DNA from: an uncultured Flavobacteriaceae bacterium
Lineage (GTDB): Bacteria > Bacteroidota > Bacteroidia > Flavobacteriales > Flavobacteriaceae
NCBI GenBank assembly: GCA_963793275.1
Contig: CAWBZL010000002.1
Coordinates: 101,590-165,589, forward strand
Direction of reading: 5' to 3'
Length of the DNA stretch: 64,000 nucleotides
Shown here one piece after another: positions 3,655-32,768 of this stretch (positions are counted from its first letter, which is position 1; every line of letters starts with the position of its first letter). A model generated the notes under the pieces. It saw nothing but the letters and a program-made list of their open reading frames with translations, did no database searches and was not told the DNA's origin. The translations under genes and the position numbers were made by a program.

Positions 3655-4191
3655 ATGAAACTAATTCTCACATTTTTAATGCTATCCACGATGCCATTGT
3701 CCGAACCACAGCTTATATTCAATTTTTCTGAAACTTCAAACCTTGATGCCTGGCGCATTGTAGACGATGGCGTTATGGGTGGAAAATCTAATGGATCTTT
3801 TTCTTTAACCGAAGACGGACACGGAAATTTTTCGGGGGTTATCTCGCTTAAAAATAATGGCGGATTTTCATCTGTGCGTCACAATTTCAACGAGATTTCA
3901 GTTACTGAGGACTCTAAAATATGCATTAAGTTGAAAGGAGATGGGAAGCAATATCAATTCAGAATAAAACACAATACGAACGATTACTACAGTTATATTT
4001 TCCCGTTTGAAACTTCCGGAGCGTGGGAAACTATAGAGATTGAACTGAAAGATATGTATCCTTCCTTCCGTGGAAGAAAACTGGATATGCCTAATTTTTC
4101 AGAAGACAGCATAGAAGAATTGGTTTTTTTGATAGGAAACAAGAAAGAGGAGGCATTTACGTTACTTCTTGATAACATTCAGCTAAAGTAA
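3655..4191 (+). CDS. CIA30 (complex I intermediate-associated protein 30)-family protein
   Basis: N-terminal signal and a WRIVDDGVMGGKSNGSF motif typical of the CIA30 family. Confidence 0.7.
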   Translation: MKLILTFLMLSTMPLSEPQLIFNFSETSNLDAWRIVDDGVMGGKSNGSFSLTEDGHGNFSGVISLKNNGGFSSVRHNFNEISVTEDSKICIKLKGDGKQYQFRIKHNTNDYYSYIFPFETSGAWETIEIELKDMYPSFRGRKLDMPNFSEDSIEELVFLIGNKKEEAFTLLLDNIQLK

Positions 4192-4216
4192 ATCGAAATT
4201 AACACCGGCCTTACTT

Positions 4217-5377
4217 CTATCCCCGGAAGAGAAAGAAATCGTCTTTCATAGGCTCAATCTTTTCGTCTTTGTTGGTGATGATATACTCCAGGGCCAGATC
4301 CGTAAACTCCTTGCCTTTTTCGGTAAGCGAAACTACATTTTTTTCAATTTCGATCATATTATTTTTTAGTGCCAAATGTACGACGGTTTTAGACCGTACT
4401 TTTTGCCAATTTATATGTTCCTGAAGGTGATTAATGTGTCTTTCTTCAACTTCGGAATGATTGTTTAAATGGAGTAGAAATGTGAGTAAAGAAACTTCGG
4501 TACGTTGTTGTTTCTGGCGGTATAAAACAGCGATGAGACCTTTCCGCGGAGCGAACAAATACACCATTAAAAATACAATTCCAAGCATAGTACTCATACT
4601 TCCCGAAATAGAAGCATCCAGCAAATGTGCCATCCAATACCCCGCTAGCGCAGAAAAAACACCAAAAAGTATAGACAATAGCAGCATTTTCTTTAGATCT
4701 GAAGTCAACAAATACGCCGTTGCGGCGGGTGCAATCATTAACGCAACCACCAGAATAGCTCCCACCGCGTCAAACGCACCCACTACCGTTACCGAACTAA
4801 CAGACATAAGTCCGTAATGCATAATAAGGGGGGAGATTCCTAATGCAGAAGACAGTCCGGCATCAAAAGTGCTTACCTTTAATTCTTTATAAAAAAGCAG
4901 AAGCAGCGCAATACTAATGATAAGGATAGTCCCCATGATCCATAGCGATTTTGGACCTACATCTATTCCAGCCATGAGAAGTCTGTCAAAAGGTGCAAAT
5001 GCCAGTTCTCCCAGTAACACTGCGTCCACATCCAGATGGACATCATTCGCATTTTTAGCAATTAAAATTACGCCAATACTGAACAACGCCGGAAAAACAA
5101 GGCCAATTGCGGTATCTTCTTTTACCATACCTGTTTTTTGAATGGCCTCTACCAAAACTACCGTAATAACGCCTGTGAGCGCAGCCAATAAAATAAGTAA
5201 GGGCGAATTGAGGTCTTGTGTAATGAAAAACCCGATCACAATTCCCGGCAGGATGGAATGACTAATAGCGTCACTAATAAGTGCCATCTTACGAAGTACT
5301 AAAAACACACCCGGAATAGCGCACGCTATAGCTACCACTACTGCAATAAGTTGTATTTCTATCTGTGGACTAGTCAT
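4217..5377 (-). CDS. metal (Mn/Zn/Fe) ABC transporter permease with C-terminal soluble extension
   Basis: Polytopic membrane core similar to MntD/ZnuB-type permeases. 8-nt overlap with the upstream permease gene. About 100 extra C-terminal residues. Confidence 0.85.
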   Translation of the reverse strand: MTSPQIEIQLIAVVVAIACAIPGVFLVLRKMALISDAISHSILPGIVIGFFITQDLNSPLLILLAALTGVITVVLVEAIQKTGMVKEDTAIGLVFPALFSIGVILIAKNANDVHLDVDAVLLGELAFAPFDRLLMAGIDVGPKSLWIMGTILIISIALLLLFYKELKVSTFDAGLSSALGISPLIMHYGLMSVSSVTVVGAFDAVGAILVVALMIAPAATAYLLTSDLKKMLLLSILFGVFSALAGYWMAHLLDASISGSMSTMLGIVFLMVYLFAPRKGLIAVLYRQKQQRTEVSLLTFLLHLNNHSEVEERHINHLQEHINWQKVRSKTVVHLALKNNMIEIEKNVVSLTEKGKEFTDLALEYIITNKDEKIEPMKDDFFLFRG

Positions 5378-29804: not shown

Positions 29805-29849
29805 ATCAGGATAAAATCTAAGTTTAATTTATAAAGGAAACAATAAAAT

Positions 29850-29871
29850 CCGCTCTCTGTAAAGAGGGTGG
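29850..29871 (+). other. GNRA-capped hairpin immediately upstream of the tRNA array
   Basis: CCGCTCTCT-gtaa-AGAGGGTGG, 9 bp including two G-U pairs that are valid only on the + strand. Confidence 0.6.
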
Positions 29872-29876
29872 TATAC

Positions 29877-29960
29877 GGGAGTGCGTCAACGCTGGAGAGT
29901 TGAGATAGTCTGTAAAACTATTCCTTAGTAGCTGAATAGGTTCAAATCCTTTCACTCCCA
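29877..29960 (+). tRNA. tRNA-Tyr (GTA), class II, 84 nt
   Basis: Acceptor GGGAGTG/CACTCCC, anticodon arm ATAGT-CTGTAAA-ACTAT, variable stem TTAG/CTGA, T loop TTCAAAT. Atypical C8 and one U-U mismatch in the T stem. No encoded CCA. Confidence 0.75.
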
Positions 29961-29963
29961 CAG

Positions 29964-30036
29964 AGTACCGTAGTTCAAAGGCTGGAGCGTCCGGTTGTCT
30001 CCCGGAAAGGTACGGGTTCGAGTCCCGTCGGTACTG
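29964..30036 (+). tRNA. tRNA-Asp (GTC)
   Basis: Acceptor AGTACCG/CGGTACT, D arm GTTC/GAGC, anticodon arm TCCGG-TTGTCTC-CCGGA, T arm ACGGG-TTCGAGT-CCCGT, discriminator G. Atypical A1-U72 and U37. Confidence 0.85.
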
Positions 30037-30115
30037 CGAATGATATTGAAGGAGTTTGCATCGGGACGAGAAGTTTATCCTGAGTAGTGGTGAGGCACGA
30101 GCCGCGAATCGAAGG

Positions 30116-30130
30116 GAGTCCCGTCGGTAC
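30116..30130 (+). repeat. 15-nt direct copy of the tRNA-Asp 3' end (GAGTCCCGTCGGTAC)
   Basis: Identical to 30020-30034, the T-loop/T-stem/acceptor 3' strand of tRNA-Asp, and lies 96 nt downstream of it. Confidence 0.85.
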
Positions 30131-30168
30131 GGTCATGCCTCCGACGAGAGAGGCACGAACCAGAGGAA

Positions 30169-30240
30169 GGCACTTTAGCATAGTGGTTGGTGCACCTCAC
30201 TTTCTATGAGGAGACCAGGGTTTGATTCCCTGATGGAGTA
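30169..30240 (+). pseudogene. tRNA-Glu(TTC)-like unit with non-pairing acceptor strands
   Basis: The D arm GCAT/GTGC and anticodon arm CCTCA-CTTTCTA-TGAGG are good, and the T stem CAGGG/CCCTG pairs. But the T loop is TTTGATT (no C56), position 37 is U, and 5' GGCACTT versus 3' ATGGAGT pair at only 3 of 7 positions. Confidence 0.5.
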
Positions 30241-30244
30241 CAAT

Positions 30245-30340
30245 GGGCTTATGGTGTAGCGGATAGCATGCTTGGCTTCGAACCAAGTGGTATGTTGCCT
30301 GTGCCGCACTTGATGCGGTATTCAAATCCTGTTAAGCCCA
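30245..30340 (+). ncRNA. 96-nt tRNA-Arg(TCG)-like element with an inserted hairpin and no canonical T stem
   Basis: Perfect acceptor GGGCTTA/TAAGCCC, D arm GTGT/GCAT, anticodon arm CTTGG-CTTCGAA-CCAAG. This is followed by 33 nt containing hairpin CCGCA-cttga-TGCGG (30304-30318). A TTCAAAT loop is present but its flanks (CGGTA / CCTGT) do not pair. Confidence 0.5.
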
Positions 30341-30345
30341 CAAAT

Positions 30346-30418
30346 TGAGGTATAACTCAGCGGCTAGAGTACCGTGCTTTTAACACGGGAGTCCTAGGTT
30401 CAAATCCTAGTGCCTCAA
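30346..30418 (+). tRNA. tRNA-Lys (TTT)
   Basis: Acceptor TGAGGTA/TGCCTCA (one G-U), D arm ACTC/GAGT, anticodon arm CCGTG-CTTTTAA-CACGG, T arm CTAGG-TTCAAAT-CCTAG. U1-A72. Confidence 0.85.
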
Positions 30419-30422
30419 CAAT

Positions 30423-30493
30423 AAACCCATAGTGTAGTGGTAGCACACAAGATTTTGATTCTTGGGGTCTGAGTTCGAATCTCGGTGGGTTTA
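30423..30493 (+). tRNA. tRNA-Gln (TTG)
   Basis: Acceptor AAACCCA/TGGGTTT, D arm GTGT/GCAC, anticodon arm CAAGA-TTTTGAT-TCTTG, T arm CTGAG-TTCGAAT-CTCGG. Confidence 0.85.
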
Positions 30494-30501
30494 CACTATA
30501 T

Positions 30502-30574
30502 GGAACAGTAGCAAAGCGGGTCAATGCACTGGATTGAAGCTCCAGGAATACGGGTTCGAGTCCTGTCTGTTCCA
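30502..30574 (+). tRNA. tRNA-Phe (GAA)
   Basis: Acceptor GGAACAG/CTGTTCC, anticodon arm CTGGA-TTGAAGC-TCCAG, T arm ACGGG-TTCGAGT-CCTGT. Confidence 0.85.
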
Positions 30575-30730
30575 CGAAAGGTCTGTAACGCAGATGATAG
30601 TATCAAGCGGGTCTTGTTGTGTGTTTCGGTATAGCACCATTGCATACGGCGTTGCAACTAGTATTGCGAACGTATGTGCAACTTGACTTGAAGGTTTTGC
30701 TGTTTTCCAAAAAATAGCGGCAATCGTTTC

Positions 30731-30754
30731 GTGGGTTCGAATCCCACTCCCGCC
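30731..30754 (+). other. orphan tRNA T arm plus 3' acceptor-type strand with no matching 5' strand upstream
   Basis: GTGGG-TTCGAAT-CCCAC followed by TCCCGCC. No GGCGGGA-like partner exists in the preceding 156 nt. Confidence 0.6.
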
Positions 30755-30757
30755 CAA

Positions 30758-30842
30758 GCAGGGATAGCGTAGTGGTTAACGCACCAGATAAAGGATCTGG
30801 CAAACGAGAGCAGATGTCGCGGGTTCGACTCCCGCTCCCAAT
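30758..30842 (+). ncRNA. 85-nt tRNA-like element with a non-canonical anticodon loop (TAAAGGA) and an 18-nt variable region
   Basis: D arm GCGT-AGTGGTTA-ACGC and T arm GCGGG-TTCGACT-CCCGC are perfect. Anticodon stem CCAGA/TCTGG pairs, but loop position 33 is A (or a 6-bp stem with a 5-nt loop forms). Own acceptor strands GCAGGGA / TCCCAAT pair at only 4-5 positions. Confidence 0.45.
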
Positions 30843-30846
30843 GTAA

Positions 30847-30916
30847 ATTGGGGTAGCTCAGTTGGTAGAGCACTGCACTTTTAATGCAGGTAATGGACTC
30901 AAAATCCATCATCGTA
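30847..30916 (+). pseudogene. tRNA-Lys(TTT)-like unit lacking a matching 3' acceptor strand
   Basis: ATTGGGG-TA-GCTC-AGTTGGTA-GAGC and the anticodon arm CTGCA-CTTTTAA-TGCAG are canonical. The T arm ATGGA-CTCAAAA-TCCAT lacks TTC. The 3' strand CATCGTA does not pair with the 5' strand. Confidence 0.5.
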
Positions 30917-30973
30917 AAGAAGGTCAACTTTTAAAAAAGACCACCAGCCTGTCACGCTGTTAAATTTGACAAA

Positions 30974-31336
30974 AATAGTATGGGAAGCGTCGGTTTAGAT
31001 TTGCTGAAACGTGAATGAAGAACACTCCTGAAAGTACCTTGAGTGGCGCCGGTGGCTAGTAAAGAATAAATTTCTTTGTGAGCATTTTGAAACCATTGAA
31101 CCTTTTTATTAGGAATCCGTACCTGGAGCCTACTAAAAGGAAGGATGTGGTTTCAACGCCTTACAAACAGGTTTTGTAACTGGTAGCCACCCCGTCACTC
31201 CGTCACTGGAAAGAGGATGTGCCCTGTACTGTTTTTAATTGAAAAGGATTGCGTTAGGGATTGAGCGTTATGTATGAGCTCTTTTTAATTGTTTGAGCAA
31301 TTAGAAAAGCGAGTAGCGAAAGCCCGACCCAGTATT
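30974..31336 (+). ncRNA. candidate large structured RNA (four-way-junction core at 31023-31221)
   Basis: No ORF longer than 14 aa across 30917-31345. Hand-found nested helices include a 16-bp helix 31041-31058/31184-31200 enclosing three hairpins. See findings for details. Confidence 0.4.
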
Positions 31337-31448
31337 GCTTGAGGTATGAAAAGCGATATTGGGAAACGCCCAAAATACAAAAGAAATACACGGTCCCCGT
31401 TACAGACTGTGTTGTTAACTGAATGTTTAATTTCTAAAACTTAAAAAA

Positions 31449-32552
31449 ATGAAAAGAGTTAGAATTAATACCGGAATGGTAGGTTTGGTCTTCAAGAGAG
31501 GAGATTACAAACGAGTAGTAACACAAGGTGTCTATTGGTTAAGCTTTGGAGAGCGTGTTGTAAAATACAACCTTGCCGAAGCCATGCGCAAGGCACCCGT
31601 AGCATTAGAAATTCTTGAAAGGGACGAAGCTTTGGTGGCCCTTTGGCACCAGGTAGATGTTTTGGATACAGAATTGGTCATCGTTTATAAGAACGGCCAA
31701 TACAACCAGATATTAACAGCTGGAAGATATGTATTCTGGAAAGGGTTGATAGACTACAGCTTTACACGTGTAGACCTTACAAAGATCTATATCACGGAAG
31801 CGATTGATACGTCACTTTTTGCCAAATTAGAATTGGCCAAGTATATCCGTTCTTTTGAAGTGGCAACATCTGAAAAAGCGGTGCTTTTAGTAGACGATGT
31901 TTATGTGAAAACCTTAACCGGTGGTACGTACCGCTTCTGGAGAAATGAAACCACTATTAAAATTGCAAAAGCAGATATGCGACAATTGCAATTGGAAGTA
32001 GCTGGACAGGAATTGTTAACCAAGGATAAAGCGGCAATCCGTATCAACTTTTACGCGCAGTATAAAGTAAGCAATGTGGAGCGAGCGCTCTTGGAAAATA
32101 AGGACTACGAGAAGCAATTATACGTGGCTATGCAGTTGGCGTTACGTGCGTATGTAGGTACGTATACTTTAGACGAACTTTTGGAAAACAAATCACAAAT
32201 CGCGAACGCTGTGTTTGAAGACACAAAGACAGCCGCAGATAAATTGGGTGTTACGGTAGTATACTGTGGAATCCGGGATGTGATCTTAACCGGGGAAATG
32301 AAGGACATCATGAACCAGGTGTTGGTTGCACAAAAGAAAGCTCAGGCTAATGTAATTACAAGACGTGAAGAAACAGCTTTGACCAGAAGCTTGTTGAATA
32401 CCGCCAAATTAATGGAGGACAATACCATGCTTTACAAATTGAAAGAGATGGAATACGTAGAGAAAATTGCCGACAAGATTGGCGAGATCACCGTTTCCGG
32501 AAACGGAAACATGGTGAAACAATTAACCGAAATTTTTGCGGTGAGCAAATAG
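31449..32552 (+). CDS. SPFH/band-7 (slipin-like) domain protein
   Basis: The C-terminal half matches the SPFH pattern (LTKDKAAIRINFYAQYKV..., coiled-coil tail). Confidence 0.8.
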   Translation: MKRVRINTGMVGLVFKRGDYKRVVTQGVYWLSFGERVVKYNLAEAMRKAPVALEILERDEALVALWHQVDVLDTELVIVYKNGQYNQILTAGRYVFWKGLIDYSFTRVDLTKIYITEAIDTSLFAKLELAKYIRSFEVATSEKAVLLVDDVYVKTLTGGTYRFWRNETTIKIAKADMRQLQLEVAGQELLTKDKAAIRINFYAQYKVSNVERALLENKDYEKQLYVAMQLALRAYVGTYTLDELLENKSQIANAVFEDTKTAADKLGVTVVYCGIRDVILTGEMKDIMNQVLVAQKKAQANVITRREETALTRSLLNTAKLMEDNTMLYKLKEMEYVEKIADKIGEITVSGNGNMVKQLTEIFAVSK

Positions 32553-32572
32553 TGCCTTAACGGTAGGTGCAA

Positions 32573-32607
32573 GCACTGGGAGTTATATAACTTCTGGTGC
32601 TTTTTTT
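32573..32607 (+). terminator. Rho-independent terminator after the SPFH gene
   Basis: About 12-bp stem 32573-32584/32589-32600 with several G-U pairs valid only on the + strand, then T7 (32601-32607). Overlaps the 3' end of the convergent small ORF. Confidence 0.6.
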
Positions 32608-32768
32608 ATGGTTGTAAGTCCCATTTCTAAAAATCTGGATTGGCGCTCATAAGCTGTCATATCCAAGCAGGGACAACGGTTGCAACGTTTATGTTCTCCC
32701 TTTTTGATGTATTTATCACAGCATTTGGTTTTGATACCTTCTTTCTTCTTTTTGTTTTTCTTTCCCAT
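32583..32768 (-). CDS. small basic cysteine-rich protein (61 aa)
   Basis: TAATG stop/start overlap with the upstream deacetylase gene. CC-x12-C-x2-C-x-C pattern. Confidence 0.5.
   Translation of the reverse strand: MGKKNKKKKEGIKTKCCDKYIKKGEHKRCNRCPCLDMTAYERQSRFLEMGLTTIKKAPEVI

Follow-up and report, generated by a model that had tools for sequence, protein, structure and literature searches.

The locus and its tRNA cluster

In the window (the whole 64,000-nt stretch of DNA that was analysed), the genes around the element of interest encode RecQ, a TPR protein, a slipin (Band 7), a deacetylase, Tex and MetRS. The best matches of the slipin lie in the Flavobacteriaceae, with about 80% identity to Aureisphaera and 93% to a Logan contig, and the window is, as judged from its sequence, part of a Flavobacteriaceae chromosome close to Aureisphaera. 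A phage origin was rejected: blastn and megablast searches against 50,697 phage records returned either nothing or only trivial matches to tRNA-Tyr, a scan of viral contigs was negative, and the genes nearby have housekeeping roles in bacteria. A small cluster of tRNA genes sits between the TPR and slipin genes:

29877–30575, + strand: tRNA cluster of Tyr, Asp, an element carrying a 3' fragment of Asp, a damaged Glu, the 96-nt Arg unit, Lys, Gln and Phe

The order of TPR gene, tRNA cluster and slipin gene was also found at the related loci L001, L002, L003, L127 and L130/L131, and the same tRNA cluster is carried by L124/L125 and L126/L128. Locus L129 stops short of the array. Both gene content and gene order of the array vary among these relatives. 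Arg(TCG) is missing from the arrays of L127 and L130/L131, and the latter consists of just Tyr and Asp ahead of the conserved downstream region. At L133–L136 the deacetylase gene comes next after the TPR gene, across a 58-nt gap; the same adjacency was seen at L137–L139 (Marinirhabdus sp. in the search output) across a 340-nt gap, in both cases with no tRNA in between. Since the TPR and deacetylase genes adjoin in two lineages, the cassette of tRNA array, non-coding RNA and slipin gene (about 29805–32767 of the window) is variably present. These comparisons indicate that the tRNA cluster is dispensable and decaying. CGA makes up 10.6% of Arg codons, a value that is uninformative, and the dispensability of the Arg gene is judged from the arrays of relatives, the organism's own genome being covered over 64 kb.

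Several further features were observed along the locus. At L130/L131 (1979–3143) and L137 (112–1704), CIS_TMP, Phage_T4_gp19 and phage sheath genes lie directly upstream of the TPR gene; unlike these, the window has no contractile-injection or phage-tail-like genes at that position. Directly upstream of tRNA-Tyr, a hairpin CCGCTCTCT-gtaa-AGAGGGTGG (29852–29873; about 3081–3103 in L001 and about 4624–4646 in L130) shows compensatory change in relatives (CCACCCTTTGTAAGGAGGGTGG, CCGCCCTCTTAATTGGGGGCGG) and could terminate transcription of the TPR gene or serve as a signal for processing. The tRNA-Asp gene is followed by a conserved element (30038–30169; L001 3832–3955, L127 3994–4058) that reads GGGACGAGAAGTTTATCCTGAG...GAAGG and ends with a copy of the Asp 3' end, GAGTCCCGTCGGTAC. 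This element co-varies with the Asp gene (CCCGTC in the window, CCCATC in L127) and could represent an ancient att-like duplication or else a structured RNA linked to the tRNA.

A 96-nt tRNA-Arg(UCG)-derived element

The fifth unit of the cluster has the following parts:

30245–30340, + strand: tRNA-Arg(UCG)-derived unit of 96 nt (Rfam RF00005, orthology and sequence)
30245–30251, + strand: acceptor 5' strand GGGCTTA, 7/7 pairs with 30333–30339, pairing probability 0.76–1.0
30254–30269, + strand: D arm GTGT / AGCGGATA / GCAT (Rfam alignment)
30271–30287, + strand: anticodon arm CTTGG / CTTCGAA / CCAAG (sequence; identical in L002 and L124)
30278–30280, + strand: anticodon TCG, in the loop CTTCGAA (30276–30282) on the stem CTTGG (30271–30275) / CCAAG (30283–30287)
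30288–30291, + strand: retained variable loop of 4 nt, TGGT, equal to that of L124/L125
30289–30299, + strand: candidate small hairpin GGTA-tgt-TGCC (weak, predicted in the constrained fold)
30292–30320, + strand: lesion, 29 nt (ATGTTGCCTGTGCCGCACTTGATGCGGTA) in place of the 5-nt T-stem 5' strand (alignments)
30301–30321, + strand: 8-bp hairpin GTGCCGCA-cttga-TGCGGTAT, strands 30301–30308 and 30314–30321 (minimum free energy fold)
30321–30332, + strand: orphaned T loop TTCAAAT (30321–30327) and T-stem 3' strand CCTGT (30328–30332), identical in L002
30333–30340, + strand: acceptor 3' strand TAAGCCC (30333–30339) and discriminator A (30340), with no encoded CCA

The acceptor, D and anticodon arms show no disabling change. 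The acceptor is better paired than in the orthologs described below, with G1–C72 in place of their G1–U72; the 5-bp anticodon stem carries a 7-nt loop with U33 and a purine at position 37, and the D loop contains GG, as a canonical tRNA requires. An earlier note on this DNA had recorded the perfect acceptor GGGCTTA/TAAGCCC and the canonical anticodon arm with its CTTCGAA loop and Arg(TCG) identity, all of which we recovered, the identity also from orthologs at the same array position. It had likewise counted 45 nt (30288–30332) between the anticodon stem and the acceptor 3' strand, where about 22 nt are expected for a class I tRNA, and had seen the motif GGTAT..CCTGT twice (30289–30302 and 30317–30332); both readings are accurate. 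The hairpin that it gave as CCGCA-cttga-TGCGG (30304–30318) exists and is in fact longer, with 8 bp. Its description of the D arm as perfect went too far, as the GTGT/GCAT stem includes two G-U pairs, though the same stem is found in the canonical orthologs.

Canonical orthologs and restriction of the long form

A canonical tRNA-Arg(TCG) of 72 nt occupies the corresponding place in the array of four other lineages, namely L001/L126/L128, L002 (Aureisphaera galaxeae, 4138–4209), L003 and L124/L125; the 73-nt coordinates given by ARAGORN take in one flanking base. The window copy is near-identical to these orthologs from the acceptor 5' strand through the 4-nt variable loop, and near-identity resumes at the T loop TTCAAAT and extends through CCTGT and the acceptor 3' strand. 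The sole structural difference is the T-stem 5' strand, which in the orthologs comprises 5 nt (ATGGG, ACGGG, AAGGG or ATAGA; consensus given as AYGGG) and in the window is replaced by the 29 nt of ATGTTGCCTGTGCCGCACTTGATGCGGTA. This alignment indicates a clear homology to canonical tRNA-Arg(TCG), clearly beyond a chance resemblance, and the long form is therefore taken as the derived state of an ordinary tRNA gene. Among the options left by the earlier note, an insertion into the variable/T region of a tRNA describes the element aptly, the net gain over the canonical orthologs being 24 nt.

The nearest relative that we found, the L001 type (slipin 93% identical, Logan contig), has a canonical Arg gene, and its array is identical in three independent samples (L001, L126 and L128). 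No insertion-bearing version emerged from a metagenome scan in which 14–44 nt separated the conserved D/anticodon segment from TTCRA, and a control scan without the gap recovered three loci, all canonical. In isolate contigs, the loose pattern GGCTTCGAACCN{20,50}TTCRAWTC was used; the matches listed were chance matches and ordinary tRNA-Arg genes, and the absence of the long form from isolate genomes is judged from syntenic look-ups. In the data searched, which include few very close relatives, there is no second example of the 96-nt form, and it is restricted to this lineage. The same note had also considered a structurally novel tRNA-like RNA, and had named lack of conservation as an argument against its own proposal. 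The long form is indeed unconserved, which counts against a novel functional RNA, and the nearest relative has a canonical gene; this option is not supported.

Loss of the T arm

ARAGORN called seven tRNAs around the element and skipped the element itself. It was not called with default settings, with the intron search (-i), or with thresholds relaxed to -ps90 and -ps80; at -ps70 a "tRNA-???" was reported for it, amid evident false positives. The refuting outcome named in the earlier note, a canonical fold recovered by software, thus did not occur up to the point where false positives appear. Rfam RF00005 scored 39.5 bits on 30245–30340, above the gathering threshold of 29, and treated 24 nt as a variable-region insertion. 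The canonical orthologs reached 62–69 bits, placing the window copy 23–30 bits lower. In the RF00005 alignment, a substitute T stem is made from GCGG(U) (30315–30319) and CCUGU (30328–30332). Of its four pairs, two are G-U, and a U-C mismatch and one additional base are also present; the stem lacks G53–C61 and encloses a 10-nt loop.

Folding with ViennaRNA gave a different picture. Since the hairpin takes up the GCGG, the substitute T stem GCGG/CUGU reached a probability of about 0.001, and the pairs of the 8-bp hairpin had probabilities of 0.70–0.998, about 0.99 overall. When the cloverleaf was enforced, the free energy was −23.6 kcal/mol, compared with −31.7 kcal/mol when only the acceptor, D and anticodon arms were enforced and the hairpin formed in the remainder; the unconstrained minimum was −34.5 kcal/mol. 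UCAAAUCCUGU is unpaired in the preferred folds, and the element is predicted to lack a 5-bp T stem with G53–C61 closing a 7-nt T loop. The statement in the earlier note that the TTCAAAT loop has no complementary stem is therefore true of the predicted structure, although not of the Rfam alignment, where the loop does receive a partner strand.

One could read that alignment as a working, non-canonical tRNA-Arg, in which a 27-nt stretch serves as a class-II-like variable arm and the weak GCGG/CUGU stem closes an enlarged T loop. RF00005 aligns the element in just such a way, and the acceptor, D and anticodon arms with their U33/A37 loop are intact. This reading would nevertheless have to rely on the four-pair stem that the hairpin outcompetes, every ortholog is a class I tRNA of 72 nt, the element is rejected by ARAGORN, and our searches gave no second example. 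To our knowledge, long variable arms in bacteria are restricted to Leu, Ser and Tyr tRNAs and do not occur in tRNA-Arg. We therefore consider a working tRNA very improbable. More generally, this case illustrates that RF00005 can still pass a gene whose T arm is destroyed.

Four further assignments were rejected. A true class II tRNA would have an intact T arm, which is not the case here; besides, the anticodon is that of Arg, and the variable loop of the orthologs has 4 nt. An intron-containing tRNA was dismissed, as the insert of 24–29 nt lies in the T stem and, by inspection, no single deletion restores a stem of the form [AG][CT][AG]GG: TTCAAAT is preceded by CGGTA, so no single contiguous excision can rebuild the T stem, and ARAGORN -i found no intron-bearing tRNA at the element. 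The intron types considered were bacterial group I introns of 200 nt or more in the anticodon loop and archaeal introns with a flanking bulge-helix-bulge. The hairpin does not qualify as an intrinsic terminator, since no T run follows it and a terminator scan gave none on the + strand. A YrlA-like mimic was rejected for 30245–30340 because RF02553 gave no match and the hairpin is followed by the remnant of a T loop, not by a D arm.

Origin of the insert

The hairpin has an energy of about −10.2 kcal/mol, which was matched by 2.3% of shuffles of the 28-nt insert and by 0.5% of natural 28-mers from the window. It is thus a real feature of the insert, and a palindrome-creating mutation explains it as well as selection does. 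Three GGTAT motifs occur in phase, starting at 30289, 30317 and 30349, the last of them in the next tRNA gene:

30349–30353, + strand: third GGTAT, at the 5' end of tRNA-Lys, proposed microhomology partner for the duplication

The 23 nt between the first and second motifs are colinear with the 31-nt ancestral segment in front of the third, i.e., the T-stem 5' end, T loop, T-stem 3' strand, acceptor 3' strand and spacer. The colinear blocks are GTT, CCTGT, GCC-CAC and TTGA (shuffle p 0.0045; about 1% of natural 31-mers score equally). This arrangement lends modest support to a tandem duplication of about 36 nt through GGTAT, later modified by deletions and by changes that improved the hairpin, and the insert probably arose by local duplication or rearrangement. 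No insert donor or second copy longer than 11 nt was found on either strand of the window or in the related loci, and a repeated or mobile palindromic element was rejected, there being no other copy in the available sequence.

The earlier note had suggested a product of recombination with ends that selection still maintains. Its first half agrees with the colinear insert and the three in-phase GGTAT motifs, but we saw no sign of ongoing selection. As the other arms are free of lesions, one has to assume either a complex and recent event or persisting constraint on the arms, and given the decay of the surrounding cluster the former is more likely. A young lesion explains the intact arms equally well.

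It is also conceivable that the gene is truly canonical and that the 96-nt sequence is an assembly or sequencing artefact, as it has no independent confirming copy in the collections searched. However, a 29-nt, non-repetitive and internally structured segment that is unmatched elsewhere in the window is atypical of an assembler error, and the flanking genes are intact. We regard an artefact as extremely unlikely.

Other altered tRNA genes in the cluster

The Arg unit is not the only altered gene of the array. In the tRNA-Glu(TTC) of the window (30170–30241), the 5' acceptor strand is replaced (GGCACTT versus GCTCCAT in L001), leaving 3/7 pairs, and the T loop carries C56->T; the gene scores 42 bits versus 65.5 for its L001 ortholog and is still called by ARAGORN. 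In the L001-type tRNA-Lys(TTT) (about 3594–3681 in L001; also in L126 and L128), the T-loop segment AAATCCT is changed to the hairpin-capable TCCCAATAGCTATCGGGACC, with TCCCAATAGCTATCGGGA in place of the T loop. This variant is identical in the three independent samples and is not called by ARAGORN. L127 contains a 97-nt Gln-like tRNA gene (4137–4233; Rfam tRNA 38 bits) whose anticodon loop contains a 27-nt insert. This loop starts with CUUUAA, which contains a possible UUA anticodon, and CGAGTC direct repeats flank part of the insert.

Three lineages thus each have a different array tRNA with an insert of 13–27 nt, namely Arg in the window, Lys in the L001 type (stable in its three samples) and the Gln-like gene in L127. 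This recurrence would be expected if the 96-nt element were a tRNA-derived RNA with a new non-decoding role, as a decoy or regulator, and one of several remodelled units beside the tRNA-mimic non-coding RNA of the cassette. The stronger-than-chance hairpin, the intact arms, which could reflect constraint, and the conserved tRNA mimics encoded just downstream also point in this direction. Against it, no insert is common to two lineages, and each of the three has its own sequence, host tRNA and location (T stem, T loop or anticodon loop). Plain decay is seen as well, in the broken Glu acceptor, in gene losses and in the loss of the whole cassette, and the hairpin of the insert is known from a single sequence. 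We consider such a role for the element unlikely. That the remodelled Arg, Lys and Gln-like genes reflect a recurrent process, or selection towards non-decoding RNAs that act with the tRNA-mimic RNA and slipin, appears to us similarly doubtful.

A conserved non-coding region with tRNA-like modules

Between tRNA-Phe and the start codon of the slipin gene lies a non-coding region of ~870 nt (30576–31448) that is conserved in seven lineages from several genera and contains invariant blocks, e.g., GTCTTGTTGTGTGTTTCGGTATAGCACCATTG, CAACTTGACTTGAAGGTTT, CCTGTCACGCTG and CCGTTACAG. Rfam identified no family at threshold in this region, which is a candidate for a large structured non-coding RNA or a slipin leader. 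At 30725–30910 it holds two tRNA-like modules in tandem. Both are permuted, running from a T arm through a closed acceptor-like hairpin and a D arm to an anticodon-like arm. Their covariation is strong: RNAalifold on seven sequences found compensatory changes in 20/36 predicted pairs of these modules. The second closed hairpin has seven pairs that are unbroken in all seven sequences, each compensated in two to four of them; CCCAAT/ATTGGG, for instance, appears in relatives as CCCGAT/ATCGGG, CAATAAC/GTTATTG and others. The "tRNA-Leu(aag)" called by ARAGORN at 30758–30843 is part of this chain of modules and not a normal tRNA, and its anticodon loop is unconserved (TAAAGGA in the window versus TTTCGGT in L001).

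The topology of T arm, closed hairpin and D arm is that of YrlA-type tRNA mimics (PMC4201824). In six of the seven lineages, the modules gave RF02553 YrlA matches of 33–42 bits, below the gathering threshold of 69. They differ from YrlA in that two modules stand in tandem within a larger conserved region, and there is no Ro60 (Rsr) gene among the neighbouring genes.

Interpretation and comparison with known systems

We consider it likely that the 96-nt element is a pseudogene in an accessory tRNA cluster, a tRNA-Arg(UCG) gene whose structure has been disabled in this lineage, because its T arm is wrecked by a hairpin-forming insertion of ~24 nt that is seen in this genome alone. The element combines homology to an intact tRNA gene and a lesion in an essential arm with a lineage-specific lesion and a dispensable gene. 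Three observations temper this reading: the three undamaged arms require that the lesion is young or that constraint persists, the hairpin exceeds most random sequences in strength and could hint at selection, and the RF00005 score still passes the gathering threshold.

The ancestor would have been a normal 72-nt tRNA in a small accessory cluster. In this lineage, a local rearrangement may have exchanged the T-stem 5' strand for the 29 nt, most likely through a GGTAT-microhomology duplication that spanned the T arm and everything up to the beginning of the following tRNA and was then altered by deletions or by palindrome-improving template switches. The new sequence would form the stable 8-bp hairpin and leave neither the TTCAAAT loop nor the T-stem 3' strand with a partner, giving a transcript without the G53–C61 pair, the closed T loop and the coaxial acceptor/T helix. 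G53–C61 and the closed T loop are core determinants of the tRNA elbow and, together with the acceptor/T helix, are recognised by RNase P, the CCA-adding enzyme, EF-Tu and the ribosome. With these features lost, maturation into a chargeable tRNA is not expected. The element is probably transcribed as part of the cluster, and its transcript most likely acts as spacer RNA and is degraded.

Canonical tRNA-Arg(UCG), as in Aureisphaera galaxeae and others, shares the array position with the element and is near-identical to it in the acceptor, D and anticodon arms, the T loop and the T-stem 3' strand; the differences are the length (96 versus 72 nt) and the 29 nt in place of the T-stem 5' strand. Class II tRNAs (Leu, Ser and Tyr) also have extra stem-loop nucleotides between the anticodon arm and the T loop. 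They retain a full T arm, however, whereas the hairpin of the element takes up the one strand that could serve in a T stem. The T-armless mitochondrial tRNAs of nematodes and arachnids are shortened and dependent on a specialised EF-Tu, and we know of no bacterial counterpart. They resemble the element in having acceptor, D and anticodon arms without a normal T arm, but the element is expanded, not shortened, and nothing here suggests that it is such a counterpart. The re-use of tRNA arms in a non-tRNA topology, as in YrlA-type Y RNAs (RF02553; PMC4201824), is found 400–650 nt downstream in the locus, whereas the 96-nt element itself lacks the order of T arm, closed acceptor hairpin and D arm.

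The closest parallel is offered by pseudogenes in bacterial tRNA arrays, which have been reported from the Anabaena trn operon (PMC8421152) and in a survey (PMC4758250); in the Anabaena operon, 3/26 genes gave no detectable tRNA (PMC8421152). As in those arrays, a redundant copy carries a lesion, its neighbours are intact and the cluster is variable. Unlike them, the cluster here has about eight genes, compared with the 20 or more that define "arrays", and it is a chromosomal cluster of Flavobacteriaceae, linked to a conserved non-coding RNA and a slipin gene.

On its own, the element matters little, as another case of redundant tRNA copies decaying in variable clusters. It does provide a clean, datable example of a complex insertion in a structured RNA gene, possibly made by microhomology duplication together with palindrome-forming changes. 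The surrounding locus is of more value, since the tRNA cluster, the conserved non-coding region of ~870 nt and the slipin gene travel together and are variably present.
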